This document shows, piece after piece, positions 6,750-64,000 of a stretch of DNA of 64,000 nt. Position numbers and translations under genes: made by a program. The DNA comes from Chrysemys picta bellii (lineage: Eukaryota). Location of the stretch: positions 350,424,001 to 350,488,000 of the forward strand of contig NC_088791.1 of NCBI RefSeq assembly GCF_011386835.1, in the 5' to 3' direction. Within the stretch, counting starts at the first letter, position 1, and each line of letters opens with the position of its first letter. The notes under the pieces are model-generated. The model did not search any database and was not told the origin of the DNA. It was given only the letters and a program-made list of their open reading frames with translations.

Positions 6750-7685
6750 ATGTCAGCTGTCAATGACACCAAATTCAACTCTGCAGTGTTCCTTCTCACC
6801 GGGATACCTGGGTACGAAGAGGTGCATCTCTGGATCTCTATCCCCTTCTGCCTAATGTATGTTATTTTGATAGTAGGAAATTCAGTCATTCTGTTCATTA
6901 TAAAAACAGATCCAAGCCTCCATGAGCCCATGTACATTTTCCTTTCCATGTTGGCCCTCACAGACCTTGGCTTATCGATAGCCACCATACCGACGATACT
7001 GGGCATATTCTTGTTTAATGCTAGGGAGATCAGCTTTGATGCCTGTTTTGCCCAGTTGTTTTTTATCCACTCGCTTCAATGCATTGAATCCTCCGTGCTC
7101 TTGTTGATGGCCTTTGACCGCTATGTAGCGATCTGTTACCCACTGAGATATGCTTCCATCTTAACACTGCAAAGAATAGCCAAGATGGGACTGGTGTGTG
7201 TGCTAAGAGGAGTAACCGTAATAATCCCACTCCCCCTTCTCCTGAAACGGTTCCGATATTGTCGAGCCAATGTCCTGTCCCATTCCTACTGCCTGCACCA
7301 GGACATCATGAAGCTGGCTTGTTCAGACATCACAGTCAACAGCATCTATGGCTTGTCTGGTTCACTCTTAATTATGGGGTTGGACTCGCTGCTCATCTTC
7401 CTCTCTTATGTGATGATCCTCAAAACTGTGCTGAGTGTTGCGTCCCCTGCGGAGTGCCTCAGGGCCCTGAACACCTGTGTCTCCCACCTCTGCGTTGTCC
7501 TGCTCTTCTACACACCAGAGATAAGCTTGACTGTGATACACAGATTCGGAAACAGCTCTTCTCACTTGCTTCAGATTCTCCTGAGCTACATCTACCTTCT
7601 CGTCCCGCCTCTGATGAACCCAGTCGTGTACAGCGTGAAAAGCAAACACCTTCGTGCGAGGATCATCAGGGTGTTCGTCAAGTGA
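6750..7685 (+). CDS. Class I olfactory receptor, OR51-family-like (OR copy 1), 311 aa
   Basis: Motifs GN (TM1), LHEPMYIFLSMLA, MAFDRYVAICYPLRY, SHSYCLHQD, LNTCVSH, HRFG, PPLMNPVVYSVKSK; N-glycosylation sequon NDT at N5; the ATG aligns with the paralog starts. Confidence 0.97.
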   Translation: MSAVNDTKFNSAVFLLTGIPGYEEVHLWISIPFCLMYVILIVGNSVILFIIKTDPSLHEPMYIFLSMLALTDLGLSIATIPTILGIFLFNAREISFDACFAQLFFIHSLQCIESSVLLLMAFDRYVAICYPLRYASILTLQRIAKMGLVCVLRGVTVIIPLPLLLKRFRYCRANVLSHSYCLHQDIMKLACSDITVNSIYGLSGSLLIMGLDSLLIFLSYVMILKTVLSVASPAECLRALNTCVSHLCVVLLFYTPEISLTVIHRFGNSSSHLLQILLSYIYLLVPPLMNPVVYSVKSKHLRARIIRVFVK

Positions 7686-8040: not shown

Positions 8041-9787
8041 GAGAAGGGACGTGGATCTTGTTTCCCATTACACCTGGACTGTCACTGAGCCGTTTCTGGT
8101 AAAACATCCACAGGCCATGAAAAAAGCTGCAGTCGCAGTCCTGGCCCTTCCTGAGCGCTCTGGGTGCAGCATGACCCATGGGTGCTGCACCAGGTGTGGA
8201 CAGGGGCTATTCCAGGGACACGGACACCCACCCTTCCCCCACGCCCTCAGCCAGGTGCTTGTGACTGAGCCGTGTCAGAGACATAATTAAGGCAGGAGCC
8301 CCAGGGGAAGCCATGCAGGCAGTACATCCTTGCCCCCACGCTTATGGCTCTGTAGACCACACACCTGCTCAGCCCTCTCCCCACCGAGGCAGAACAGAGC
8401 TGCATGTGTGAGTGAGGGTCTGACCCACAGGTGTCCTGGCAAAAGACTCAGGCCCAGATTCCCTCCTCCTCCCTCTGTTTGTGCTGCCCTAGCAATGCAA
8501 AGGGGTGGAAAAGGGAATCCGCTCCCCATCACAGGCACGGCTAGCTCCTCTCGCAAAAGCAGAACATATACAAGAGCAACGTCTCCACATTGACCCAGCC
8601 CCTGCCCCTCTTCTTCCCCCCAGGCCACTCCCTCTGCCCTATCCCTTCCCCCAAGCCCCACCCACTGCTCCTCCTCTTTATCTGAGGCTCCACCCCTTCT
8701 CCAGGCCCGAAGCCAGCGCCGGAGCATGGTAAGAGCTCCCCAGGGAGCCAGCGCCACTGTGCGGAGCCCAAGACCCTCCTCCTGCCCTGGGCAGGTGGCC
8801 TGAGATCAGCCCCCAGCTTGTGTCCCTCACCCAAGGACGTACCCCCAGGAGTACTGTCGAGAGTTCCTGCTTTCTCCAGTGCACAAGAGATGCCAGCTGG
8901 ACCTGTCAATGCTCAGATAGCTGGAAGTCTGGTCCTGTGGCCTTGGCACTGCTCTGTGACTCAACCGAGTTAGGTTTGATTCCCGTGCCATGTGACCATG
9001 GGCAAGCTATTGGTTGTGTCCGAGCCTCTGCACAGGTGGATAATAGCCCTGCCCTGCCTCACAGCGGTGGCAGGAGGATAAATACATTCAAGGTGCTCAG
9101 ACCCTAAGGTCAGGGCTATGTCAGGGCTCCACAGAGCAAAGCCACTGACATTTCTTACCACAGCCTCCTGTGACAGCTGGCTTCTGGGAAGCCCCGTGAC
9201 TCCAGTATCTTGGTGTCTGTGGCAGATGTGGCAATAAACCTGAACACGTTCCCTTGCTGAAAACCAAGTCTGTGCATTTATTGGTGCTGTGTTAGGTGCT
9301 GAGTACCGCCAGATTAATTTCTGGGTTTTTTTTTGTAGGCTCCTTACAGCTCTTTCCAATGTTTAATTTTGTTCCTGTGCTTGCTCTCTCTGTACCGCTT
9401 GCCGCCCTGCAAGGGGAGCGGGAGCACTCCAGGGCTCAGTGGATTCTCCTGCTTCTTTTAACTCTTTTTTGTTTGTTTGTTGTGACGTGTTGTCTTAACC
9501 ATTTAACAGCCGTGGTTATCGTTTGCAATATTCTATATTTCAAGACTACAGTCTCCGCCCTAGCCTTACAAATTGAATTACATGTTTCTTCCCTACTATA
9601 TTTCTTTAAATTCCTATAGACATCTTTTGCTAGCCACTCGGCACGTCCATACTTTATTGAACTCTCTGTGGAATTGTAGGGAGGGGTGAAGGGGATTCCC
9701 TAACACATAGTTCTCTGCCATGTTAGCTCACGATTCCTACAGAGGACAGCTAGCTTACTTGCCAGATCAGCGGTCGGGGATCGCCAG

Positions 9788-10240
9788 TGTTGTTCCGCTA
9801 TGAATGTGTGTTCTCCCTGTGTGCTGTCACAGCTCTGTGCAGACAGATGGCACAGCGGACCTCGAGCGAACCACCCAATAAATCCACAGACTCGGTTTTC
9901 AGCAAAGGCACTTGGTCACGTTTATTGCCAACGAAGCACGGTGCTAATGCCCTGGCTCCATGGTTACAGGAACACTAAGACATATATGCCGACGACAGTG
10001 GACCGGCTCAGTGAATGGTGGACTTTCCATTCTCCCCTCGGCCAGACAAAGACATGGCATCAGAGATACATCTTTATACACAGATACAAACAAGTTACAT
10101 ATTGCCCCTGACGTACCACCCTCTAACCTTTTAGGGTGCCACCCATTGATGTATCCAAGGGCCGCCCGTTACGTTGTACATGTTGGTTTGATCAAAACAT
10201 CTCTATCCATCATGCTGTTATTCCTGCCCTTCTCCTTTGC
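9788..10240 (-). mobile_element. LTR fragment (same family as 29947-30682)
   Basis: Colinear similarity to the 29947 LTR (GTGTTCTCCCTGTGTGCTG, CCGGCTCAGTG, TTTATACACAG.TACAAACAAGTTACA); minus-strand AATAAA and TATAAA. Confidence 0.7.
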
Positions 10241-19000: not shown

Positions 19001-22000
19001 CTACAACAGCCTCTTTCGTCTAAGGTTCATTCTAGCAAAGTTACTTATTACTTTATTATAATCTACTTCAGTAGCCAATTGTCTTTCAATGGAGAGCAAA
19101 GCTAACCCAGACAATCTATCTTCACCCATTGTAGAGTGCAGATAGGTCTTTATAAGTTTGAGGATGACTATGAGTCGGCAATGTGACGTGACCATGAAAA
19201 AACCTAATGTGGTCTTGGGATGCATCAGGTGAGGTATTTCCAGTAGAGATGAGGAGGTGTAAGTACTGTTATACAAAGCACTGGTGAGACCTCATCTGGA
19301 ATGCTGTGTGCAGTTCTGGTCTCCCATGTTTAAAAAGGATGAAATCAAACTGGAACGGGTACAGAGAAGGACCACTAGGATGATCCGAGTAATGGAAAAT
19401 CTGTCGTATGAAAGGAGACTCGAGAAGCTTGGTTTGTTTACCTTAACCAAAAGAAGGCTGAGGGGGGATATGATTGCTCTCTGTAAATATATCAGAGGGA
19501 TAAATACCAGGGAGGGAGAGGAATTATTTCAGTTCAGTACTAATGTGGACACGAGAACGAATGGATATAAACTGGCCATCGGGAAGTTTAGGCTTGAAAT
19601 TAGACGAAGGTTTCTAACCATCAGAGGAGTGTAGTTTTGGAACAGCCTTCCGAGGGAAACAGTGCAGGTGAAAGACCTCTCTGGCTTTAAGATTAAGCTT
19701 GATAAGTTTATGGAGGGGATGGTTTGAGGGGATAAAGTGATTTTAATCAATAGGTCAATAACGTGCAGTCGCTGGTAATTAGTAACCATGGTCAATGATG
19801 GGATATTAAAAGTTACTACAGAGAACTTTTTCCAGAGGGTCTGGCTAAAGAATCTTGCCTGCATGCTCAGGAATCAGCTGATAGCCATATTTGGGGTCGG
19901 GAAGGAATTTTCCTCCAGGGTAGATTGGCAGAGGCCCTGGAGGTTTTTCGCCTTCCTCCGCAGCATGGGGCAGGGGTCGCTTGCTGGAGGATTCTCAGTG
20001 ATTTGAAGTCTTTAAATCATGATTTGGGGACTTCAACAGCTGAGTCAAGGGAAAGAATTAGTCCAGGAGTGGGTGGGTCAGCTTCTGTGGCCCGCATCAT
20101 GCAGGAGGTCAGACTAGATGATCATAATGTTCCCTTCTGACCTTAGAGTCTATGAGTCTATGAATCTATGAGCCAGCTAAAGGATCGTTCCACAACTGCG
20201 CTACTTATTGGCAAGGTCAGAAAAATGTGGTACAATCTCGAAAGATTAGGATAAATGGAACACATATCACTGGCGATCATGAATTTCAGTACACTGTGGA
20301 TGGTGAGTTTCTTGTCGACCCTTGACTTTACCCTACCGCTAGTGCTCATTATCTCTTTGTACATGTCTTTAAATGAAAGAAACTCTTCCACAATTTCAGT
20401 TTGACTGTTGATCACATCTGAGTACGTCTGCCAAAAATTCTAATTTGTTTACATTATCCACGTTGTCAAAATGCATTGGATCTAAACCACTAAATTTGGC
20501 AGCCACATTTTTAAAATGCTCGAATCTTTTACTCGTGCTAATTATAACAGAATCTAAGGACACTAAGTAGGATTCAACTATGAATTTCTTCCGGGCATCA
20601 AATATTCCTTCTTTATCCTCTGCAATTTCATCATGGAATCTTTTTCTCTGTCGTATTCTGTGCTGCTTATATTCTGTAGTAATATCACATTTTCGAGCCA
20701 ACTCGGTTGCTTCATTCTCAACCTGTTTGAATTCAGATTCAAATTCACTTTGAATGTTTGTCATATCATTTTCAAAAATCTGAATCAAATGAGAAGCTGT
20801 TACCAGATCTAGACTACTTTTCTGTAAATATGTGGATAAATGGAAAGCCTTCTCTAGCACTTTACTCCAGAATATAAGAAGAACTAAGAATTCGTAAGTA
20901 TCGAGTGTTGCCAGAATACCCTTTGCCTCAGTGAGCTGTTTAGGAGTACAGTTTTTTATCTCACCATCCACAATTCTTTGCAGGGCAATTACTAGTGCTG
21001 GTAAATTTTGTAAGACTGCATCCACTGCTGACTTTCTAGATGCCCATCTGGTATCACAAAGTTTCTTTAGAGTTAGTGCGAAAGAGTCAATAAGATTGCA
21101 TTGTTCTTCTTTTAGTACTGAAAGACAAGGTAAACTGCCAGAAAAAAAACTATACAGACTTTCAAGAGTTCCAAAAAACAACCGAGTTTGAATATTGGAT
21201 CGTAATGCATCAATCAGAATTCAATTAAAATTATGTGCACAACAGTGCGTAAAGAGTGCATTTGGAGCAATTTCCCGTATCCTAGTTTGGAGACCTGATA
21301 TTTCACCCGACATGGTGCTTGCTCCATCGTAAGACTGACCGTAACACATAGTTATTGACAACCCCAAGTTTTTGATTGCTGAAAGAAGAATGTTGAAAAA
21401 ATCTTCAGCACTTGCTCCAGATAATTCGCTGAATTGTATAAATCGTTCCATTGCATCACCGTTTACTGTTACATATTGTAAGGATAAAGAAAATTGATCA
21501 GTTCTGCTGATATCAATAGTAGAGTCAACAATTACAGCAAAGTACTTAGCTACTTTGATTTCAGCTACTATCTTTGATAGAAGCTCGGCTGATAAGGATT
21601 GTATCAGATCATTTTGTATGTCAGGACTGAGATATGTTGCATTTCGATCACTCAGTAATAAATGTTGTTCCAGTAATATATCATTTTTAGCCAACAGCTT
21701 AATAAGTTCCAAAAAATTGCCTTCATTTGTACTTGGGGAACCTAAACCTCGATACTCGCGATGACCGCGGCATGCCAATCCCTGAATTCCCAAAAAGAGA
21801 ACTGCATCTATAATACGTCGTAAAATCATCCTACTTTTTTCTATCTCTTTCCTTTCCACCGTTAGAAGACCAGCCAAGACTGTTCTATCGTTGAACAAAC
21901 GGAATTTGGTAAGGAAAAGTTCTTTCTCTGCTCTTTTGTGACTTTCACTTTTTTCATGTTTTTCAATTTTGTGCGTACCTTTAGCAAATTTCTTGCAACC

Positions 22001-22713
22001 AGTTTTTGGATCACTCCAAGCATCCGACCGATTTGCAAAAAGCCAACAAGCAAAACAAATCATAGTGTTTGCTCTTGGTGAGTATACCAGCCAGTGCCGG
22101 TTGATTGTATGAACACTTTTCACTTGTTTTTGTTTGTACCAAGTTGCACGGAAATGACGTCCAGCTTCATTTTTTGGAAAATTGTCAAAATTATCTTTAC
22201 ATCCTGGCTGACAAGGGCCTAACTCAAGCAGAGCCCATACTAGATCAAGTGTTACAGGTGTGTCACAAAACAAGTGTGGATCTGTTTGGGTATTCCCTAT
22301 GTGTGTCAATAATAGCACGGAGTCTTACTGTGTCATTTTTGTCCTCTGCATGATAGTCTGCTGAAGTAATCAGGTCTTCTGAGGACTCCACTTCCCCTAC
22401 CTGTGCAGCCGTTAGCAGCCCGGATGCTGTGACCAGCTCCTAGGTTGAAGGTAGGTACTAGCAAGTCTTCAGAGGGTTTTACCTCTGGTGAAGTCATAAC
22501 AGCCGGGGCACCATCTCCAGCTCTTGGGCTGAAGGTAGGTAGCAAGTGTTCAGAATGTTCCGCCTCTGGTGCAAAAGACGTCGTGGGCGTATCGAATGAA
22601 AAGTAGGCCTTCAACTTCACATATTTTGGCGATTCTTTTACTCGATTTGCATCTTCCTTCATCTTCTTGCTGTCCCACCCAGATAGTTTCTTCTTCTTAA
22701 TGCGCTTATCCAT
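19001..22713 (-). pseudogene. hAT transposase (ZMYM1-like; TTF zinc finger, DUF4371, hAT dimerisation domain)
   Basis: WLVYSPRANTMICFACWLF, FAVIVDSTIDIS, GQSYDGASTMSG, HCCAH, LCDTRW, VERSFS, KLIKTYLHSTMGEDRL; in-frame TGA at 21221-21223, frameshifts near 20420 and 22330-22500, and a CR1 insertion. Confidence 0.92.
19163..20171 (+). mobile_element. 5'-truncated CR1 LINE nested in the transposase
   Basis: ORF 19284-19634 RPHLECCVQFWSP..LERVQRR..RLRGDMI..KFRLEIRRRFLT (CR1 ORF2 C-terminus); (TCTATGA)n tail; splits ERSFSWL|KLIKT. Confidence 0.95.
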
Positions 22714-24759
22714 CCCTTCTCAGAAACAAATAAAATAAATATGAACAATATATGATTGTTTTTAAAATGTGAATTATTTAAAAAAACTGTCCACAGGACA
22801 GCCAGGTCAATTTCACAGCTCTATGAATTTGATGCTCATCGAATCTGGTCAGCAAAGTGTTAAATGATTTGTTGAAAAGGTGCCACTTTATTCAAAAGTA
22901 GAGGAGAAGCGAAAACAATCCGCACACTAAGAAGTAATCAAACAGACTGAACTATTTGAAATTATCCAAAGGGTTCAGCATTTGTTTATATTGCAGGAAA
23001 CAATTCTTATGAGTATGCGTGCTTGGGTGGGTGCCTGGGTGAGTGAGTGTACATGTCAACCGATTTAAAAAAAAAGCACCGACAAAAGGGCGAAGACAAA
23101 ATGTTTAAAAAAATGTGGGCCTCTTGGCTCTTGCAAGGGATTCACATATTACAAGACTGACTAATGCTGTAGTGGTAAGTGTTACAAGTGTACAGAGGAC
23201 GTTTCTACCGCATTTGATTATGTGATGGAAGCTACTGCCCGGTACCAGGGGCTTTCCTGCACGAAAAAAGCAAGTCCCGCTGATGTGTCATTTGTTCCTG
23301 CGAAGTGAGAGCAAGTCGAGATTCCTGCTAAACAGGGGGCTGGATTGGACCTGGTTGCGCTGATGACATCACCAGGCAGGTTGGGTTATAAATGAATGAA
23401 GGAGAAGTCCGGAGCACTAGCTCCTCACTTGCAAGGAGGCTGCGAAGCTTGTCCAGAAGAAAATGACACCACTCAAAAATTATTTGGAGGTACCTGTATC
23501 GGAATGCGCTCTTTCATAGGCGTTCTTTCGTCAGTGCTTTTTTGTCCTGCGTAGAAATGTAAACATTTCCACAGACATCCCCAAATACACACAGCAACAC
23601 ATCCAAATACACACTCAGAAGCACATACACTTTGACACACAGAGCATGGACACTGATGCGCTCCCCCAAACACACACACTGACACACAGTTCATCGGTCA
23701 CCCACACACCCTGCCATGCATAAACACCCCCAGGCACGCAAACAGTTCAGTTCACTACTTTAGAAGGATAACAACTGTTGCCCAAGTTTGATGTAGAGGA
23801 TGACAAATAGATTCTGAAGTTTGCGGCAAGGGGAGTCCAGTGAGGATATGAGAGAGAGGGAGATCCCAGTGGCATCAGGAGAGATCTGGAGTGGGCGTCT
23901 GGTAGGGGAAGAGGGTATGGGAGAGTGGCAGTCCTGTTCTGGTAGGGCACTATGCTGAAAGTGTTGGTTGGGGGGTCTCCAAAGAAGGACTGCTGCAGAG
24001 AGGAGGGGTCCAGGGTTTTAGAGGAGATATTGGGGAAGGGGGAGGGTTCCAGGGTTGACTCTTGGGTGGGTAATCCCTGGGTAATTTCTGCGTGAGGCAA
24101 GGATCAGAAGATTCCAGAGAAGGGGAATGTCCTGGAGTTGGGATATTCTGGGTGGGTGTTGGGGGGTCTTTTGGGAGAGAAGAGATTACAGAGGTGAGGT
24201 TACAGGATTGGGAAGGGGGAGGAGATTTTGGAAGGTTTATGGGGGAGAGGGCTCCAGGGGCAGAGATGCTGGGGGAGGGAGTTTGAGGAAGAAGTGAGTC
24301 CAGTGGGAAGATTGTGGAGAGGGCTTTTCCAAGGAGCGGTGGGGGGGTCTGCATCACTCCTCCCAAGGACAGACCTTTCTGGTGTCTGACTTCACTGGCT
24401 AGCGCTCAAGCCACAAGTGACGGGTCCCTTGGAGACACCTCTCCCCATAGCAACGTAATCGCTTCCGGTTCAGATCCTGACAATAAGCAGCAAGATGAGC
24501 GGGGGAAAGAGACAGACAGACAGAGCCAGGGGAGGGGACGGGTCTTGCTGCAGGGAGCAGGAGGGCTCGGCAGCTAGGGGCCAGGTCTGTTGGGGGACAG
24601 AGGGTGGGGGATGGATGGGATGTGCGCATAGGCATGTGCAGCCCATTTCATTAGGGTGTGCACCCAGGGAGCCACACCCTAGACGAACCCCTGCCCTAGT
24701 CCTGCCCCCATCCACTCCCTTCTACTTCCTGCCCCCTGACTTCCCCCCTCAAAACCCCC

Positions 24760-27470: not shown

Positions 27471-27829
27471 AGAGGTCTTCAAACTGGGGATGGGTCCCCC
27501 GGTGATGTGTGGTATATTCCAGGATGGGCGTGAGAAGCTTTAGGGAAAAAAACCCTTCCTGTGCACATTCTACCCATAGCCGTGAATAACTAGCCAAGAT
27601 GATTCCTCCAGACAGATCTGGTCTTCATTTGGTGCTGTGTTTTTGTCTCTAGGTGGCGCTGTGCATTTTATTGGATTTCTGATAAGCATGTCCCGCATGA
27701 CACTAAGTCCTTTTCATCTGAACGTGGATCCATATGCTATAGCGCGGTGTGCACATTTCTTTGTAAGCAGGGACTACATTCGTAGTTTTGCTTTTGCTCT
27801 TATTCCAATTGATCGTTAGCTCATACCCA

Positions 27830-28990
27830 GTTACAAACGCTGTAGAAATACAAAAAATATCAAAAAAACAAGCAAACATAATGTAAATACACTACCTCTC
27901 CAGTTTGGTGCACATGCCATTCAGGAGAAGTGTGCCATCGCAGAAAAAAAATGTAATTGGAGCTGAAACAATAAAGCAATTAAGTATAATCATACATTTC
28001 TCAAATATGTGTGTCAAACAAGCCGTTACTGTAAAAGAGGGCAAGGACGATGTTCATCTAACCTCCACGGGGCTTGCTACTCAAATTTTAAAAGCAATAA
28101 AATTGAAAAAGCCACGTCCCGCGCCAGAAGGCTGGAAAGCCTGGGGGGCGGAAAGACAAAATGGATGGGCTACCCATTCTCTAAATACAGGAAAGGTACA
28201 AATTTCAGTTACACTAGAAGGAGGTGTGTCTCCATACCTTAAATAATACTCCAAACCAAAAAAATTCACTAAAACAAGTCGTAGAAGAACTGGAAAAACA
28301 GAAATTAATCCGGAGGTGCTCAGTGCCTAATGCAACACCAATCTAGCCAGTAAAAAAACAGATGGAACATGAAAATTAACTATTGACTATTGAGGGTTAA
28401 ACAAAATTGCTAAGCAGGGAGCCCCCGTAGTAACTGCTTATCCTCTGCTGCTGGAGGTGGTATCCCCAGAAATAAAGTGGTTTTCTGTACGGAATGTGGC
28501 AAATGGTTTTTAAAGTTTTCTTTAAATCCAGAATCCCAGTATCAAACGGCTTCTGTGTTCCAGGGTACTCAATATTGCTAAAATGTTTTGCCTATGGGGT
28601 ACGGTGATACGCCCACAATATTCCATACTGCTGTAAAAATGTTTAAAAAATTGTTGCAAGCAAAAAAATTGTGAAGTATAGAAACAATATCTTGCTAGTA
28701 AGTAAAACAGAAAAGGAGCATAAAGGGTTTGTGCAGTAGTTACTGGGTTGTTCGTTAAAAAAAACACAATAAACCTAAACAAAAGAAGCAGCTAGTGCAT
28801 GGGGAAGCTTGAAAAGAGGGTTAATGAAAACACTTGCTTTGGCTGCCCCAACAATAACTTCCCTTTCGTGTTGTATCCTAGTGTTAAAAAATTCTGTAGT
28901 GTTAGTATAATCATGCAGAGTACTGGTACTGGGGGGAAAAACCTGTTACGTGCTGTACCAAAGCATTAACAGCTCCAAAAAGCAAACTAA
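27830..28990 (+). pseudogene. Endogenous retrovirus pro-pol fragment (class III-like), copy A, G-to-A hypermutated
   Basis: Reads LIRRCSVPNATPI*PVKK.DGT*KLTIDY*GLNK..NVANGF*S..QGTQYC*NVLPMGY..PTIFH..YRNNILL, i.e. RT motifs IWPVKKPDGTWRLTIDYRGLN / LPxGY / YxDD. Confidence 0.85.
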
Positions 28991-29062
28991 AACTCTTAAT
29001 TCTCTGAGTTTCAGGTAATCTCACAATGCTGAGCAGACAGCTGCCCTGCCCCAGCCACTAGC

Positions 29063-29200
29063 CCTAGAAAGGAAGGATGTCTCAGGGGTTAAAGTACTGG
29101 CCTGAGATACAGAAGAACTTGCTTCAGTTCCAGGCTCTTGAACTGACTTCTTCTGTGACTTTGGGAAACTCATTCAGTCCCTCTGTTCTTCAGCAATATG
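29063..29200 (+). mobile_element. Old tRNA-derived SINE (MIR/LF-SINE-like), 5' part
   Basis: GAAAGGAAGGATG..GGGGTTAAAGTACTGG..TCTGTGACTTTGGGAAACTCATTCAGTCCCTCTG; paralog at 59370-59511. Confidence 0.5.
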
Positions 29201-29206
29201 TGTTTT

Positions 29207-29712
29207 AATACGGCTCAATGTAAAGGTTACCTCTAGGAACAAAGGATGCTGGTCATCCTTACCGGATAGGGGACGCAGTGCTGGGAAGCAGTTACTCTGA
29301 AAATGACTTGGGGATCATAGTGGTTAATCAGCTGAACATGAGCTCCCAATGCAACACTGCGGCCGAAAACGCTACTGCAATCCGGGATGTATAACCAGGA
29401 GAATCTGAAGTTGGAGCAGAGAGGTTATTTTACCTCTTTATTTGGCACTGGTGTGACTGCTGCCAGAATATTGTGTCTAGTTCTGGGGTCTACAGCTCTT
29501 GATGGACATTGATAAATTGGAGAAGGTTCAGAGAAGAGACATGGGGATGATTAAAGGATTAGAAAACCTGCCTTAGAGGGACAGACTCAAGGAGCTCAAT
29601 CTATTTATCTTAACAAAGAGAAGGTTAAGGGTGACTTGGTCACAGTCTGTACGTACTGGCATGAGGAACAAATGTTTAACAAAAGGCTCTTCAATCTAGC
29701 AGAGAAAGTTAT
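29207..29712 (+). mobile_element. CR1 ORF2 fragment ending at the module 2/3 junction
   Basis: GACTTGGGGATCATAG..CAGCTGAACATGAGCTCCCAATG..GTTCAGAGAAGAG; paralog at 59515-59990. Confidence 0.85.
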
Positions 29713-29946: not shown

Positions 29947-30682
29947 TGTTGTGAGAGGCTACCGGTGTGGTGCTTCTGCTTTCTCCTGTTGATATCACTC
30001 GGCTGCGTGCGTGTGTTCCCTCTGTGTGCTGCCCCAGCTCTGCAGATAGCTGACACAGCAAACCCGACGAGAACCCCCAATAACCACAGAGTCTAGTAAG
30101 GTACAAAGGCACCTCGGCCAGGTTTATTGCGACCTCGGACACAATTGCAGTTCCCTGTAGATTACTTAGTCTACCGGGCATACGACTAATAGATGCCTCT
30201 TGGCAAGGACCCGGCTCAGTGGCGGGACTTTCCACTGCCCCCCCGTGGCCGGACAAAGACACCACCCCAGGGATACATTTTTATACACAGGTACAAACAA
30301 GTTACACATCACTCCTGACGTATTGAGGTGCAACCCCTCTACATAGCAAGGTGCCGCCTCTCACCTTGTACATGTTGGTTCGATGAAAACAACTCTATCC
30401 ATCATTTTACCCTTTTGCCCCTGTCATTGGGATGGGTCGGCCTGTTCCATGTTATCTGTGGAATGTTCCGGTACAGTGTATCTTGGTACCATGTTTAACG
30501 TTGCTAGGTGAATATATATTTATGCAACATCAGCCCTTTTCTTGCCAGCTTCTGTGAGCAGGGCCTGCCTCTTGCTCACAGCTTAACTTTGCTTTATGTT
30601 AGCAAAGTCTTGACCATTACTTTAGTTCGGTTCAGGTCTCAGGCCTCATACTGGGCCTTCATTAGGGCCTTCGCTTACTACA
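29947..30682 (-). mobile_element. Solo LTR (736 bp)
   Basis: TG...CA ends; perfect 5-bp TSD CCTCC (29942-29946, 30683-30687); minus-strand TATAAAAA near 30285 and AATAAA near 30128; empty site in the other modules. Confidence 0.9.
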
Positions 30683-35317: not shown

Positions 35318-36253
35318 ATGTCACCTGCCAATGACACCAAATTCACACCTGCAGTGTTCCTTCTCACTGGGATACCTGGGCAGGAAGACGTTCATATCTG
35401 GATCTCTATCCCCCTCTGCTTAGTGTATGTTATTTCGATAGTAGGAAATTCAGTCATTCTGTTCATTATAAAAACAGATCCAAGCCTCCATGAGCCCATG
35501 TACATTTTCCTTTCCATGTTGGCCATCACAGACCTTGGCTTATCAATAGCCACAATTCCGACGATATTGGGCATATACTTGTTTAAATCTAGGGAAATCA
35601 GCTTCAATGCCTGTTTTGCCCAGCTGTTCTTCATCCACTCGCTTCAATGCATTGAATCCTCCGTGCTCTTGTTTATGGCCTTTGACCGCTTCATTGCAAT
35701 CTGTGACCCGCTGAGATATGCTTCCATCTTAACCCTGCCGAGAATAGGCAAGATGGGAGTGGTGTGTGTGCTAAGAGGAGTAGCCGTAGTAGTCCCACTC
35801 CCCATTCTCCTGAAACAGTTCAGATATTGTCGATCCAATGTCCTGTCCCATTCCTACTGCCTGCACCAGGAGGTTATGAAGGCAGCTTGTTCAGATATTA
35901 CAGTCAACAGCATCTATGGCTTCTATGTTTCACTCTTAATGATGGGGTTGGACTCATTGCTCATCTTCCTCTCTTATGTGATGATCCTCAAAACAGTGCT
36001 GAGCATTGTGTTCCAGACGAAGTGTCTTAGGGCTCTGAACACCTGCGTTTCCCACCTCTGTGTCATCCTGCTCTTCTACACTCCAGAGATTGGCTTGTCT
36101 GTGATACACAGATTCGGGAATAGCTCTTCTCACTTGCTTCAGATTTTCCTGGGCTACGTCTACCTTCTGGTCCCGCCCCTGATGAACCCAGTCGTGTACA
36201 GCATGAAAAGCAAACACCTTCGTGCGAGGATAATCAGATTGTTCATCAAGTGA
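35318..36253 (+). CDS. Class I olfactory receptor, OR51-family-like (OR copy 3), 311 aa
   Basis: MSPANDTKF start aligns with the paralogs; MAFDRFIAICDPLRY, SHSYCLHQE, LNTCVSH, HRFG, PPLMNPVVYS. Confidence 0.95.
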   Translation: MSPANDTKFTPAVFLLTGIPGQEDVHIWISIPLCLVYVISIVGNSVILFIIKTDPSLHEPMYIFLSMLAITDLGLSIATIPTILGIYLFKSREISFNACFAQLFFIHSLQCIESSVLLFMAFDRFIAICDPLRYASILTLPRIGKMGVVCVLRGVAVVVPLPILLKQFRYCRSNVLSHSYCLHQEVMKAACSDITVNSIYGFYVSLLMMGLDSLLIFLSYVMILKTVLSIVFQTKCLRALNTCVSHLCVILLFYTPEIGLSVIHRFGNSSSHLLQIFLGYVYLLVPPLMNPVVYSMKSKHLRARIIRLFIK

Positions 36254-37420: not shown

Positions 37421-37508
37421 GGGTTCCAGACTAGACAAGATGCGATAAATTGACCCTCTCTGTATCGATCGCTGCCCATCGATCCAGCAGGTAACGTAGA
37501 CAAGCCCT
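37421..37508. mobile_element. Short PIF/Harbinger-type MITE remnant
   Basis: Ends in GTAGACAAGCCC, the terminal motif of sauropsid Harbinger MITEs; the left end is degenerate. Confidence 0.4.
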
Positions 37509-37629
37509 AAATCACTGTCATCTGCACGTGGATCCGTAGGCTACAGCATGGTGTGCACATTTACTTGTAAGCAGGGACTACAATCGCAGTTTTACTTTTG
37601 CTCTTATTCCAATTGATCGTTGGCTCCTA

Positions 37630-38790
37630 CCCAGTTACAAACTCTACAAATACAAAAAAACAAGCAAACGTATAATGTAAAAACACTACCTCTTTAGTTT
37701 GGTGCACATGCCATTCAGGAGACGTGTGCCATCACAGAAAAAAAAATGTAAGAGGAGCTGAAACAATAAAGCAACTAAAATAATCATACATTTCTCAAAT
37801 ATTTGTCTCAAACAAGCTGTTACTGTAAAGGAGGGGAAGGACGATGTTTATCTAATCCCCATGGGGCTTGCTACTCAAATTGTAAAAGCAATAAAACAAA
37901 AAAAAACACCTCCTGCACCAGAAGCCTGGAAATCCAGGTGGACTGAAGTACAAAATGGATGGGCTACAAACCCTCTAAATACAGGAAAGCTACAAATTTC
38001 AGTTACACTAGAAGGAGACGTTCCTCCATACATTAAATAATACCCAATACCCCAAAAAACAAAACAAAAAATTCATTGAAACATGTCATTAAAGAACTGG
38101 AAAAATGGAAATTAATGCAGAGGTGCTCAGCGCCTAACACAGCACCAATCTAACCAGTAAAAAAGCCAGATGGAACATGAAAATTAACTAGTGAGGGTTA
38201 AACAAAATTGCTAAGCAGGGAGCCCCCTCAGTAGCTGCTTATCCTGTGCTGCTGGAAGTGGTATCCCCAGAAATAAAGTGGTTTTCTGTACTGAATGTGA
38301 CAAATGGTTTTTAAAGTTTACTTTAAATCCAGAATCCCGGTATCAAACGGCTTCTGTGTTCCAGGGTACTCAATATTGCTAAAATGTTTTGCCTATGGGG
38401 TACTGCAATACATCCAAAATATTCCATGTTGCTGTAAAAATATATTAAAAATTGTCACACACACAAAAAAGTGAAATATATAAATAATAGCTTTGTAGTA
38501 AGTAAAACAGGAAAGAGCATAAAAGGGTTAGTGCAACAGTTACTGGGTTGGTACTTAAAAAAAAAACACAATAAACCTAAACAAAAGAAGCAGCTAGTGC
38601 ACGGGAAAACTTGAAAAAAGGGGTTAATGAAAGCATCTACTTTGCCTGCCCCTAACAATAAGTTCCCTTTTGTGTTGTATCCTAGTGTTAAAAAATTCTG
38701 TAGTGTTAGTATAATCATGCAGAATATTGGTGCTGGGAAAAAAACCTGTTGCGTACTATACCAAAGCAATTACAGCTGCAAAAAGCAAAC
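37630..38790 (+). pseudogene. ERV pro-pol fragment, copy B (paralog of 27830-28990)
   Basis: API*PVKKPDGT*KLT..LNVTNGF*S..QYC*NVLPMGY..YINN; colinear with copy A. Confidence 0.85.
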
Positions 38791-38794
38791 TAAA

Positions 38795-40070
38795 ACTATG
38801 TAAGCAAAGTACATCAGAAGGAGGAAGCCTGCCAAAGAATCAGTGGGGCCACTGGACGATTGAGGTGCTAAAGGAGAATTCAGGGAAGATGAGGTTCTTG
38901 CAGAGAGGCTAAATGTATTCTTTGTGTTGGTCTTCACTGGAAAAGGAGTAAACAGTGAAGTGACAAAATTTGCAGCCGATACAAAACTACTCAATATACT
39001 GAAGTCCAAAGAAGATTACAAAGAGTTACAGTGCAAAGTAATGCAAAACATAATCCCAACTATATATAAAAAATGATGGGCTCTAAATTAGCTGTTTCCA
39101 CTCAAGAAAGAGATCTTGGAGTCATTGTGGATAGTTCTCTGAAAACATCCACTCAATATCCTGGAGGAGTCAAAAACAGTAACAGAATATTTGGGAACCA
39201 CTAGGAAAGGGATAGATAATAAGACAAAAAATATCATATTGTCTCTATATAAATCCATGGTATACCGACGCCTTGAATACTGTGCCCAGTTCTGGTCGCC
39301 CAATCTTCAAAAAAGATATATTTGAATTTGAAAAAGGAAAGAGAAAAGCGACAAAAATGTTTAGGGGTGCGGACAGTGATGAGCTGCTAAAATCGTAACA
39401 ACCGGTTCACTATAAAAAGTTCTGATTTAAGGGATGTGCCCCAGTATGTATTTTTTGTACCAATAGGGTTACCATACGTCCGTATTTTCCGGACGGCGAT
39501 TTAAGAACCAAAAAGCCTGACAGCTTTCATATGAAGAAAAATTAAAAAGACTGGGACTGTTCAGCTTGGAAAAGAGACGCGTAAGGGGGATATGACTGAG
39601 GTCTACAAAATCATGAGTGGTGTGGAGAAAGTAAATAAGGAAGTGTTATTTACTCATTCTCATAACACAAGAACTGGGGTCACCAAATGAAATTAATAGG
39701 CAGCAGGTTTAAAACAAACAGAAGGAAGTACTTCTTCACACAACACACAGTCAACCTGTGGAACTCATTGCCAAGGGATGTTGTGAAGGCCAAAACTATA
39801 ACTGTCCAAAGAAGAATTAGATCAATTCACGGAGGATAGGTCCAACAATAGCTATTAGCCAAGATGGTCAGGGACAGTGCCCCATGCTCTGGGAGTCTCT
39901 AAACCTCTGAGTGCCAGAATATGGGAGCAGATGGATGGAGAATGGATCTCTCGATAATTACCCTGTTTGGTTCATTCCCCCTGAAGCATCCGAACTGGCC
40001 GCTGTCAGAAGACAGGACACTGGGTTAGATGGACTATTGGTCTGACACAATATGACCATTTTTATGTTCT
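38795..40070 (+). mobile_element. CR1 LINE with internal deletions and a nested MITE fragment (~39380-39520)
   Basis: GVNSEVTKFAADTKL (RT), GATCTTGGAGTCATTGTGGATAG, 3' UTR + TTCTTA tail; insert begins CAGTGATGAGCTGC. Confidence 0.88.
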
Positions 40071-58360: not shown

Positions 58361-59369
58361 GCACACAAGTGGAGGGCCGGGCTGGGCCATCAGGCTGAGG
58401 CCACGTTTGAGTGTGGACCCAGAGCCATGGCACCACTGGCACCATTATTAACCCAGTACTGAGACAAACCCAGGGCATGGCGCCCTCTTTGGCGGGCCAC
58501 CCTGGGCAGCTGCCCATACCGCCCACCCCAAAGGCTGGCCCTGAAGCTGAGAGCTTAGAATGTGTCAGGTGACCTAGGGAAGTGTTAATATCCTTATACA
58601 ATGCACTGGTGAGACCTCCTCTGGCAAACTGTGTAAAAGTCTGGTCGTTCCTATTGCAGAAAGATTAATTTAAACTGGAAGAGGTGCAGGGAAGGTCTCC
58701 TTGGATGGGCAGAGCAATGGAGGACCTGGCTTAAATGGAGATGTAATGAGCATGTCTGGTTTAGCCTAACACAACGCAGGCTGAGTGGGAATTGGATTGC
58801 TCTATAAATATTGGGGGGGGGGGGGGAACACCAGGGAGAGAGACAAACTCCTGAAGCTAAAGGACAGTTTTGGCAAAAGAAGAAACGGGGAGAAACTGCC
58901 CAGGTCTAAACTCAGTCTGGGAAGGAGAAGGAGGTTTCTGACCATCCGAGGAGGAAGGTTCTGGAACAGCCTCCCAACAGGAGCAATGGGGGCGGGGGGG
59001 GACAATCCAGCTGGGTTGAAGATGGTGCTTGACAGGTTTATGCACCGGATGATATGCCAGGGTAACCTGCCATAGCTGGGGACTGGCCTCATTGACACAG
59101 GAGGTCCCTTCAAATTCAAGGTCCCTATGGGTCACATTCACCTGTTTTGCATCCACCAGGAGCTCATGTGGAGTTGCTTGTCCACTATGACCCTGCTCTG
59201 TGCCCTGGCAAATGGATTTGTCCCTCAATAGATTCAGAAGAAACCTATAACTCACTGTTATCATCTGGAAAATAATTGTTCTTGTGCTCCTGTTTAGTGA
59301 TGTCACAGGCATTTAATTCCCTGAGTTTCTCGTAATTTCAACATGCTGAGTCACCATCTGCCCCCTCCC

Positions 59370-60365
59370 CAGCCACTAGCCCCAGAGAGGAAGGATGATT
59401 TAGGGGTTAAAGTGCTGGCAGGTGACTCCTAGGAACTGACTTCATTTCCAGACTCTTCCACAGTCTTCTTCTGTGACCGTGTGCAACTCATTTAGTCCTT
59501 CTTTGCCTCAGCAATATGTGTTTTAATACAGCTCAATATAAAGGTGTACATCTAGGAACAAGGGATGCTGGGCATCCTTACCAGATGGGGGACCCAATGC
59601 TGGGAAGCAGTGACTCTGAAAAAGACTTGGGGGCTCATAGTGGATTATCAGCTGAACATGAGCTCCCAGTGCAACACTACAGCTAAAAAGCTACTGCAAT
59701 CTGGGATCTACAACCAAGGGAATCTCAAGTTGGACCAGAGAGATAATTTTACCTCTGTATTTGTCACTGGTGTGTCGACTGCTGGGATTCTGCGTCCAGT
59801 TCTGGTGTCTAAAATTCAAGAAGGAAGTTGATAATTTGGAGAGGGTTCAGAGAAGAGCCATGAAAATGATTAGAAAATGTGCCTTGTAGTGATAGACTCA
59901 AGGAGCTCAATCTAATTAGTTTAACAAAGAGAAGGTGAAGGGGTGACTTGATAACAGGCTGTAAGTACCTGCATGAGGATGAGAGAAAGTTATAAGAGGA
60001 TCCGATGGATGGAAGCTGAAGCTAGACAAATTCAGACTGGAACTAAGGTGTACTTTTTTTTTTTTTTTGCAATGAGGGTAATTAACCTTTGGAACAATTT
60101 ACCAAGGGCCGGGGTAGATTCTCTATCACTGACAATTATTAAGTCAAGGCAGGATGTAGTTCCAACAGCTCTGCTTTAGGAGTTATTTTCAGGCAGGTCT
60201 CTGGACTGTGCTATGCAGGGGTCAGACTAGAGGATCACAATGGTGCCTTCTGGCCTTCAGATCTATGAATGTTTGACTCTGCACAGTGGTGTTAGTAGCA
60301 CTACCCTACCACACGGGGTGTTGTACTGATAAATATGTTACAGATTGTCAGGCGCTCGGGCACTA
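59370..60365 (+). mobile_element. tRNA-derived SINE split by a CR1 (59515-60268)
   Basis: SINE head 59370-59511 and tail 60280-60365 (AGCACTACCCTACC..GATAAAT..GCGCTCGG) flank CR1 ORF2/3' sequence ending TCTATGA. Confidence 0.6.
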
Positions 60366-61121: not shown

Positions 61122-62329
61122 TGTGCGGGAATCTCAACATAGTGGTATGCTTATGATATAATTATGATACCTCTGGTACAAGATATGTCTTATGAGGTGT
61201 CATTTGAAAAGTTATGGTTTTCGAAATATGATTATCCTATTTGTGCGCATGTATCATTTTTGTACCTGAAGTTATGAATATTGACTACGTATCTGTATTT
61301 CAAATTAGCTTAATCTGTGTAACACCCACAACTAGCCTTTCAGGTACAAAAATGAAGACGCTAGACAGTGCTAATGGCTCACCAACAAAGATAATTGACC
61401 ATGGAAGAGCTTAGCCGTCCAGTGAACATTTCAGTGAGTAATGGCTGCTGTGATTTAGCAGGGCATTCATGGGCATGTGATCAGACTACATGACACTGAA
61501 CTCCATTTTGGTACCTGTATTTCTCCACAAACTGGGCCGGGACCTTAGCTGAGCCTTAAAGGGTTCTTGCCATATGGAAAAACTTTATAAGGTGGTGAGT
61601 GACATCATCTCTTGACCTCACTCCCCACGCAACAGAACTCCTGGAAACATCTGAGGAACAAAGACTGGATGGAGGGAAGTGCTGGTCCCAGGATATAGGG
61701 ATTTCTGGCCTGCATATGTAAACTTGGTGGACTGCTTGTATCATCAGTCAGGGTGAGAAATTGCTACTTCAAATCCTATCTAACTAGTATATTAGGCTTA
61801 ATTTGAAATTTTGTTTATTTGCTAGTTAACCTGCTTTGATCTGTTTGCTGTCACCTATAATCATGCAACATCTATCTTTCTGTAGTTAATAAACTTGTTT
61901 TATATTGTATCATAACCAGTGTGTTGGAGTGAAGTGTCTGGGAAAATCTCAGCTCTGTAAACAAAGGCTGTTGCATATCTTTTCCACTTCTAGGGGAATG
62001 GTACTTATATTAATGAGTTTGCATTAATGCCTGTGCAATGGAAGATGGTATAATTCTAGGTTTATACTCCAGCAAGTGTGCAAGGCTGGGGAGCTGGGAA
62101 ATTGGCTGTTGTCTCTTGTTTGTCCTTGAGTGGCTTAGGTAAAGCACTCAGGTAGCTCAGTTGGGTGTGCAGCACCACCTGCTGTCTTGTTGGGTGATAA
62201 CAGGGCCTGGAGAGGCTGGCTGTGTTACTGGCAGAGCAGTCTGAGAGAGGCCAGATGAGCTGAATGATTAGGGATCGCAGCGGTTCGACTGGCTCCCAGA
62301 CTGCAACCTGGGAGTGACAATCCATCACA
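61122..62329 (+). mobile_element. Solo LTR (1208 bp)
   Basis: TGTG...ATCACA termini; perfect 5-bp TSD GAGAC (61117-61121, 62330-62334); TATAAG near 61588 and AATAAA near 61890. Confidence 0.88.
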
Positions 62330-62334
62330 GAGAC

Positions 62335-63175
62335 AGTAAAAGTCACCAGGACCAGATTGTATTCACCCAAGAGTTCTGAAGGAACTCATGTTGAAGAACT
62401 ACTAACTGTGGTATGTAACCTATCACTTAAATCGGCCTCTGTCCCAGCATACTGGCAAATAGCGAATGTGATGCTGATTTTAAAAAATGGCTTCAAAACA
62501 TTCATGAACATGATTTGTTGGGGAAAGTCAACATGGCTTTTGAAAAGGGAAAATCATGACTCACTAATCTATTATAATTCTTTGAGTGGGTCAACATAAA
62601 TGTGGTCAAGGGTAATCCAGAGGATATAATGTACTTCGACTTTCAGAAAGCCTCTGACAAAGTCCCTCACCAAAGGCTGCTAAGAAAAGTAAGCAGTCAT
62701 GGGATAAGAGGAAAGATTCTCTCCTGGATCAGTAACTGCTTAAAAGATAGGAAACAAAGGGTAGGAATAAATGGTCAGTTTTCAGAATGGAAATAGTCGT
62801 GTCCCAGAGGGATCTATACTAGGACCAGTTCTGTTCCACATATCCATAAATGATCTGGAAAAAGGGGTAAGCAGTGAGATGACAACATTTGCAGACGAGA
62901 CAAAATTAATCAGTATACTTAAATCCAAAGCAGGCCTTAAAGAGTTACAAAGGCATCTCACAAAACTCAGTTACTGGGTGAATGGCAGATGAAATTCAGT
63001 GTTGATAAATGCAAAGTAGTGCACATTGGAAAACTTAATCCCCATTTTACATACAAAAGGATGTTTCCAAATTAGCTGTTACCACTCAGGAAAGAGATCT
63101 TGGAGTCATTGTGGATGGTCTCTGAAAATTGTGCAGCGGCACTCAAAAAAAGCTAACAGAATATTGAGTACCATA
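62335..63175 (+). mobile_element. CR1 reverse-transcriptase fragment
   Basis: LLTVVCNLSLKSASVP..W, DIMYFDFQKASDKVPHQRLL, VPEGSILGPVLF..INDL, FADETKL. Confidence 0.92.
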
Positions 63176-63317
63176 GTCGGTGGATGTAATAGGCCAGGGG
63201 GTAAGATTCCAGTGGTGCAGCTGTGGATGCCGGCTGCCAGTTGTGGGGTTTACACAGGGAAGTTTTTGCTTATTATTATGTGCCATGTAGGTTTCAGTGT
63301 GGCTGAGGAGGCAGTAT

Positions 63318-63400
63318 GTGTTACTCAGCTTCCCGGATTCATCAGTAATTCCCTGGGACTCCACAGAGATTACTGATGAACCCAGGAAGCTGTGTAACAC
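63318..63400. other. 83-nt near-perfect inverted repeat (pre-miRNA-sized hairpin or foldback element)
   Basis: GTGTTACTCAGCTTCCCGGATTCATCAGTAATTCCCTG / GGACTCCA / CAGAGATTACTGATGAACCCAGGAAGCTGTGTAACAC. Confidence 0.55.
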
Positions 63401-63407
63401 TTCCCAC

Positions 63408-64000
63408 TGTGACAAGTTGTCACCCCCAGGGTGCAGTCTGGGAGGCATTGGGAACAGCTGTGCCCTTCAACCCTCCCGCTGGGCTGGCCAATCTTACACT
63501 GCTTTGTTGGTGACACAGCCAGCCTCTGCAAGCCTTGTTATCACCCAACACAACAGCAGCTAATGCCATACACCCAACTGAGCCTCCTGAGTGCTTTGCC
63601 TAAGCCACTCAAAGACAGGCAGGAGACAACAGCCAATTTCCCAGCTATCCAGCCTTGCACCGTTGCTCGCGTATAGGAATTATACCACCTTGCACTGCAC
63701 AGGTATCGGTACAGCATAACCTCATTAATATAGGTCACTTTAACCTTGATGTGGGAAAGATATGCAACAGCCTCAACACAAACTAAGCCTAACATTCTAG
63801 ATAGGTTGGATATAAATTAGCAATTTCTCACCCTGATTGATGATACATGCTGTCCACCAAGTTTTCATATGCAGGCTAGAAATCCCTTAAGCCTGGGACC
63901 AGCACTTCCCCCGGTTCAGTCTTTGTTCCTCGGGTGTTTCCAGGAGTTCTCTTCTGTGAGGAGTGAGGCCAAGAAATGATGTCACACCCTATGTTATATA
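63408..64000 (-). mobile_element. LTR related to 61122-62329, inverted, runs off the window
   Basis: Starts TGTGAC; reverse complement aligns with ~61540-62329 (e.g. GCCTAAGCCACTCAA vs TTGAGTGGCTTAGG). Confidence 0.85.

Follow-up and report, generated by a model that had tools for sequence, protein, structure and literature searches.

Does a broken retroviral fragment lying among turtle olfactory-receptor (OR) genes record an attack on the virus by a cytidine deaminase before it reached the germline? A preliminary description of this locus had proposed such editing, with a 5′-TC preference, from stop codons at conserved Trp positions of the reverse transcriptase (RT).

A broken pol fragment in a tandem OR cluster

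Self-comparison and open reading frames (ORFs) showed that the window (the whole stretch of DNA analysed, 64 kb) consists of tandemly repeated units of ~10 kb and contains five intact OR genes. ORs similar to the gene in the unit of the pol fragment (copy A) were found at 6750, 16734, 44451, and 55848. Two of the five OR proteins clustered at 90% with Chrysemys OR51G2-like proteins, and one of these two also with proteins of Malaclemys and Emys, which points to an emydid-like turtle as the host. The features of the unit are as follows.

27500..27824, no strand: high-copy host repeat adjoining the 5′ edge of copy A (27500 is the edge of the analysis, not the true start of the repeat)
27825..28994, plus strand: copy A, a broken retroviral pol fragment (frameshift-aware alignment to P0002 residues ~45–515)
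28344..28346, plus strand: Trp-column stop TAG (TAA in copy B)
28370..28372, plus strand: Trp-column stop TGA (common to copy B)
28511..28513, plus strand: Trp-column stop TAA (common to copy B and to likely orthologues in two other organisms)
28579..28581, plus strand: Trp-column stop TAA (common to copy B)
28677..28688, plus strand: RT catalytic-motif column, YVDD in P0002, YRNN in copy A, and YINN in copy B
28770..28778, plus strand: two Trp-column stops, at 28770 and 28776 (common to copy B)
28996..29667, no strand: interspersed repeat (81% to 59313–59979) where copy A breaks off at its 3′ side
35318..36253, plus strand: OR51G2-like gene in the tandem unit holding copy A

The 5′ edge of copy A was placed from loose contig ends at 27822–27824, and both of its ends abut other repeats. 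In sequencing-run contigs the 5′ host repeat reached a depth of ~100-fold single copy at 27557–27613 and 27785–27841. No flanking LTR pair was seen around copy A in the self-comparison of the window. A short pol piece of the same family (9279–9377, minus strand; P0002 residues 186–216, a weak match) is found at the equivalent place in the first OR unit, in inverted orientation, and adjoins an LTR-like repeat. Two LTR-like repeats, at 9806–10213 and 30011–30405, are 70% alike, and their minus-strand orientation was judged by eye. Both have a low TC observed/expected ratio (~0.7) on the plus strand; their own sense strand could have been edited, or they could simply have such a composition. Elsewhere in the window, 20396–22719 (minus strand) holds near-continuous ORFs that by eye resemble a hAT-type transposase and are broken by single stops. 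Long inverted arms (~740 nt in three blocks, 79–85% complementary) surround a central 1.1 kb at 61586–63998 and may belong to a DNA transposon or form a pair of inverted repeats.

Copy A comprises the end of the protease (PR), the RT, and part of the tether. When one of its frames was read with X at stops (P0001), a Pfam search returned no domain match, and P0002 was the sole relative among 980 candidates. P0002, a Pol of 1207 residues with an open frame, comes from a Logan contig; its domains are those of RT, tether, RNase H, and integrase (PF00078, PF17917/PF17919, PF00075, and PF00665). It has the Retroviridae-type Pol layout (PR, RT, tether, second RNase H, and integrase), of which the window holds the PR–RT–tether part only. 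No env was found in the pol fragment or in P0002, and an IMG/VR scan with P0002 gave no match.

The alignment to P0002 comprised 411 codons, 248 of them identical, with eight frameshifts and a deletion of ~80 P0002 residues near 28755. Ten stops were present, nine within residues 45–515 and one upstream of the fragment proper, and the frame is dead. The codons listed in the preliminary description (TAG at 28344, TGA at 28370, TAA at 28511 and 28579, AAT at 28493, and TAT AGA AAC AAT at 28677–28688) were all read at those positions; the frameshifts distribute them among three frames. Its four stops all fall at Trp columns of P0002, and the alignment added two more, at 28770 and 28776. Stops thus occupy six of the 12 Trp columns vs two of the 23 Gln columns (p = 0.011). 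An intact Trp codon followed by T had also been described, and TGG at 28478 is such a codon, but copy A has four further intact Trp codons, including one with A as the next base (28133). This TGG-A is intact in copies A and B and counts against editing.

A 47-row tree of P0002 and its hits, built without named viral references, set P0002 apart from gypsy elements and with retroviruses (a 100/100 split), which leaves gypsy membership unsupported. Its neighbours were proteins of Pelobates and Caretta, and it lay outside the clade with gag-p30 (gamma-like) proteins. The best PDB matches of P0002 were titled RT/RNase H p80 and Pr125Pol, which we take to be those of MLV and foamy virus. By eye only, its RT looks similar to the row of snakehead retrovirus (SnRV) in a published alignment (PMC7947760). 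Clade Huo/class III comprises ERVs related to SnRV (PMC6001957), and P0002 is like these in grouping with retroviruses outside the gamma-like clade. This suggests, as a lead only, that the family may belong to clade Huo/class III, the placement being by eye and the tree holding no named SnRV or class III sequence. Membership in Lokiretrovirus was not supported: among the sequences listed in the PMC7947760 supplement, the P0002 motifs WPVKK, APVV, and CWNVL occurred 0 times, and the Loki motif WPMI (at least 27 matches there) is absent from P0002.

Strand and context of the G-to-A excess

The reference is a relative of copy A at ~62% amino acid identity and not its parent, and substitutions were scored at those sites where the P0002 residue fixes the base. 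Codons were dropped if a gap or frameshift lay two columns away or less, or if their residues fell outside 45–515, which left 329 of 411 codons for copy A and 333 of 402 for copy B, a second copy in the window described below. At these fixed sites of copy A, G>A changes numbered 51/160 vs 15/122 for C>T (p = 1e-4), with A>G at 21/168 and T>C at 5/118. Copy B gave 47/149, 14/124, 16/172, and 5/115, respectively. The G>A changes in copy A depended on the next base (GA 28/53, GG 12/41, GC 10/33, and GT 1/33), and GA differed from GC and GT combined (11/66, p = 4e-5). The background in copy A is high, as seen in the A>G rate and in the GC sites changed, and this counts against editing.

A stricter set was limited to the 216 columns in which close family proteins match P0002, with CpG sites excluded. 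The excess persisted there: 26/99 G sites had become A, compared with 7/72 C sites that had become T (p = 0.010). Within this set, 16/35 GA sites of copy A had changed, compared with 0/12 at the mirror context TC (p = 0.004) and 5/37 at GC/GT (p = 0.004); copy B gave 16/34 at GA. Both GA and GG had been named as contexts, of which only GA held. GG was not significantly enriched over GC/GT at the fixed sites (p = 0.15) or in the CpG-free set (p = 0.73), where 5/27 GG sites had changed, four of these five being GGA, and GG was rejected as a target motif.

The composition of copy A agrees with the counts. The sense strand is A-rich (37% A), as described earlier. Its GA observed/expected ratio (0.52) was lower than all 300 control values, which averaged 1.03, reached down to 0.70, and were the GA and TC ratios of 150 stretches of 1170 bp elsewhere in the window; the ratio for GG was 1.34. 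Within the window the GA deficit was confined to copies A and B. Of the synonymous third-position purines of copy A, G accounted for 8/50 where A followed and for 26/47 where C or T followed (p = 5e-5); copy B gave 9/48 and 23/47. None of six control ORFs from the same window (three ORs, two hAT-like by eye, and one CR1-like RT piece) showed this effect.

Unedited members of the family exist. Besides the open-frame P0002, closer family proteins, among them three of the sea turtle Natator, are 75–86% identical to it. Six close open-frame relatives compared with P0002 gave, in sum, 27 G>A-type differences to 25 of the reverse type, whereas copy A gave 40:18 and copy B 39:13. Single relatives varied (P0157 6:2, P0164 3:0, and P0148 3:10), and a more distant Chrysemys protein, P0163, leaned toward G>A at 8:1; such leanings toward G>A count against editing. 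Given the strand bias, the GA bias, the balanced relatives, and the control ORFs without the effect, the footprint is strand-specific and GA-specific, corresponding to 5′-TC on the minus strand, with GG not enriched.

The footprint is uneven along the fragment. GA sites had changed in 6/19 cases within residues 45–215 vs 22/34 further 3′ (p = 0.025), and the 5′ part was weakly hit (P0149 vs copy A, 7:8), which counts against editing. A gradient of single-stranded exposure or a template switch could account for this. Frameshifts lay within 10 nt of an A-run of at least five in 4/8 cases in copy A (p = 0.056) and 6/9 in copy B (p = 0.008), a proximity consistent with later slippage.

Copy B and the age of the insertion

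The second copy, which the preliminary description did not include, lies at the matching position in the OR unit that follows.

37628..38797, plus strand: copy B, a paralogous duplicate of the putatively edited fragment (11.2% nucleotide difference, K2P 0.123)

Copy B agrees with copy A in all six Trp-column stops, in the deletion, and in the 5′ host-repeat junction, the repeat part 27703–27824 being common to the copy B flank (37507–37627). The flanking paralogous blocks differ by K2P 0.123–0.217 with balanced transitions, and of the 53 G>A sites that could be scored in A as well as in B, 41 are common to the two. The copies share their ancestry: the common junction and deletion, the unit position, and the flank-like divergence led us to reject independent integration. 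Together with the common stops, these traits indicate that both likely descend from one edited insertion that was duplicated with the OR51 cluster, and the two copies record one event, not a replicate.

At G/A differences between the copies, copy B has A for G of copy A 29 times and the reverse 12 times (p = 0.012). C/T differences between the copies and the flanks are balanced, and many of the G/A differences are in GC context. Private G>A changes at fixed sites number six in A and six in B and so do not account for the 29-vs-12 excess, which counts against the editing account.

Sequencing-run contigs from four of the 24 runs listed were compared with the window; the totals of change types over these contigs, in which flanks, paralogues, and repeats are mixed, did not enter the substitution counts. 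Those of run X1 equalled it, with 0 differences over 255, 196, and 214 bases. Among the matches listed, three other organisms (B, D, and F) had pieces at 1.6–2.9% difference (e.g., 5/304, 4/256, and 23/803), some of which cross the host-repeat junction; these pieces are likely orthologues. Depth arithmetic indicated that the stop at 28511 is kept in the pieces of organisms B and D. The same column held an intact Trp codon in one other single-copy contig per run in 4/4 runs, so that, with the open-frame relatives, the same stops are not found in all family members. A third single-copy paralogue lies outside the window, with the host repeat (to 27759) joined to a pol piece (from 27945), in runs X11, X13, and X5.

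Since copies A and B differ by 11.2% and the orthologue-like pieces by 1.6–2.9%, the OR-unit duplication is several times older than the species splits of organisms B, D, and F. Turtle substitution rates are of the order of 1e-9 per site per year, which would put the duplication at roughly 60 million years, a rough figure.

Proposed deaminase, published editing systems, and rival explanations

Read from the sequence, the G>A excess of copy A was very probably produced by a cytidine deaminase acting on minus-strand cDNA before germline integration, as the preliminary description had proposed; the motif supported is 5′-TC only. In our proposed course of events, a host deaminase with 5′-TC preference, likely an APOBEC1 (A1) paralogue, would have deaminated the minus-strand cDNA during reverse transcription. 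The C-to-U changes would have arisen on single-stranded cDNA and been copied as A in the plus strand, a step that we also hold with good confidence. TGG followed by A would have become TGA or TAA, possibly with adjacent Cs hit in turn. The provirus would likely have been dead on arrival and later trimmed by deletions and neighbouring repeats. Duplication of the OR51 tandem unit would then have copied the edited insertion, at a time when the sampled species had not yet diverged, and the A-runs left by editing would later have slipped, likely giving many of the frameshifts.

APOBEC1 is our best guess for the enzyme and is modestly favoured, because mammalian APOBEC1 enzymes prefer 5′TpC (PMC6854741), the A1 of a lizard acts as a mutator of DNA (PMC3880073), and A1 is present in several copies in turtles (PMC5889660), up to six A1 or A1-like ones by a recent count (bioRxiv 2025.12.03.692250). 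No motif preference of a turtle deaminase was found in print, and PMC5399452 gave none either.

Several published systems resemble copy A. The edited ERVs of birds and marsupials share with it the clustered plus-strand G>A, a host without APOBEC3, and the destroyed frame, and A1 was proposed for them; their finch motif is GG, whereas that of copy A is GA (PMC4866542). In the same survey, edited LTR elements were reported in three of 15 non-mammals, all birds, with the painted turtle and a lizard in the genome list (Knisbacher & Levanon, PMC4866542). Published screens need consecutive G>A clusters against near-identical parent DNA, whereas copy A is old and without such a parent here. Alligator and anole ERVs (bioRxiv 10.64898/2025.12.03.692250) are alike in being retroelements of non-avian reptiles with G>A changes attributed to A1, and anole L1 carries G>A editing likewise attributed to A1 (Lindic 2013, PMC3880073). 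The latter study found no editing in lizard LTR elements, and in the accessible parts of these two reports (bioRxiv 10.64898/2025.12.03.692250, PMC3880073) neither turtle editing nor a reptile motif was found. Opossum ERVs (bioRxiv 10.1101/2025.05.21.655229) have strand-biased G>A in a host without APOBEC3, but these are gammaretroviruses edited in GY context, whereas copy A is a basal retrovirus edited, on our reading, at GA. Our search, with subscription papers mostly outside it, found no published report of turtle ERV editing; preprint supplements may bear on turtles.

Retroelement editing in non-placental amniotes (birds, opossum, anole, and alligator) is therefore already published, reptiles included, so the surprise is smaller than the preliminary description assumed, and copy A likely extends the phenomenon to turtles. 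That retroelement editing is older than APOBEC3 is the accepted view, and copy A does not alter it. We lean slightly towards regarding copy A as the first turtle record of a 5′-TC deaminase, with a motif unlike songbird GG and opossum GY, that attacked a basal SnRV-like virus tens of millions of years ago. If true, this would add the turtles, so far missing, to what is recorded of APOBEC action on retroviruses across amniotes, and the turtle APOBEC1 paralogues, an expanded set of up to six, would gain an antiviral job and, in 5′-TC, a concrete target motif for assay. Copy A also shows that synonymous-site context and protein relatives can reveal old, duplicated edited copies; screens of parent and child DNA would probably miss them.

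The rival that survives best, although we consider it unlikely, is a variant within this explanation whose probability overlaps with it: another turtle deaminase (APOBEC5 [A5], AID, or NAD/SNAD) acting at the same time and on the same strand. AID prefers WRC, which would give GY; the opossum ERVs considered together with A5 likewise have a GY signature, contrary to copy A, where GT changed at 1/33 sites. Reptiles nevertheless have A5, and the A5 of marsupials is a mutator of DNA (bioRxiv 2025.05.21.655229); SNADs are expanded in turtles (PMC5889660), and GG rather than GA in songbird ERVs shows that sauropsid motifs vary (PMC4866542). Against these points, TC fits mammalian A1 (PMC6854741).

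Two further readings dispense with a deaminase, and each seems improbable. The first is that RT error at low dCTP, or dUTP incorporation, made the G-to-A burst. The low-dCTP route has a GpA preference. HIV-1 RT at low dCTP indeed gives G-to-A hypermutation, and dUTP incorporation the same change (PMC3511177), but clustered G>A is found in LTR elements of vertebrates and not in those of APOBEC-lacking invertebrates (PMC4866542), and the sharp gap between GA and GT suggests an enzyme. The second, held at a similarly low probability, is that a naturally A-rich, lentivirus-like lineage, ordinary decay, and a distant reference together fake the excess. A-rich retroviruses do exist (PMC3511177), the identity to the reference is low, and the 5′ third of copy A shows little excess. 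Composition, however, cannot put stops at half of the Trp columns or alter both catalytic Asp columns of a replicating virus; the close relatives are balanced, and the shortage of G is found specifically where A follows.

An origin in assembly error or in mutation after integration, be it CpG decay or a strand asymmetry of the region, is very improbable and already largely refuted: CpG decay contributes, given that 9/15 fixed G sites after C have changed, but the excess stays without CpG sites, transitions are balanced in the flanking paralogous blocks, the GA deficit is limited to copies A and B, the run X1 contigs match the window exactly, and a stop is common to other organisms.
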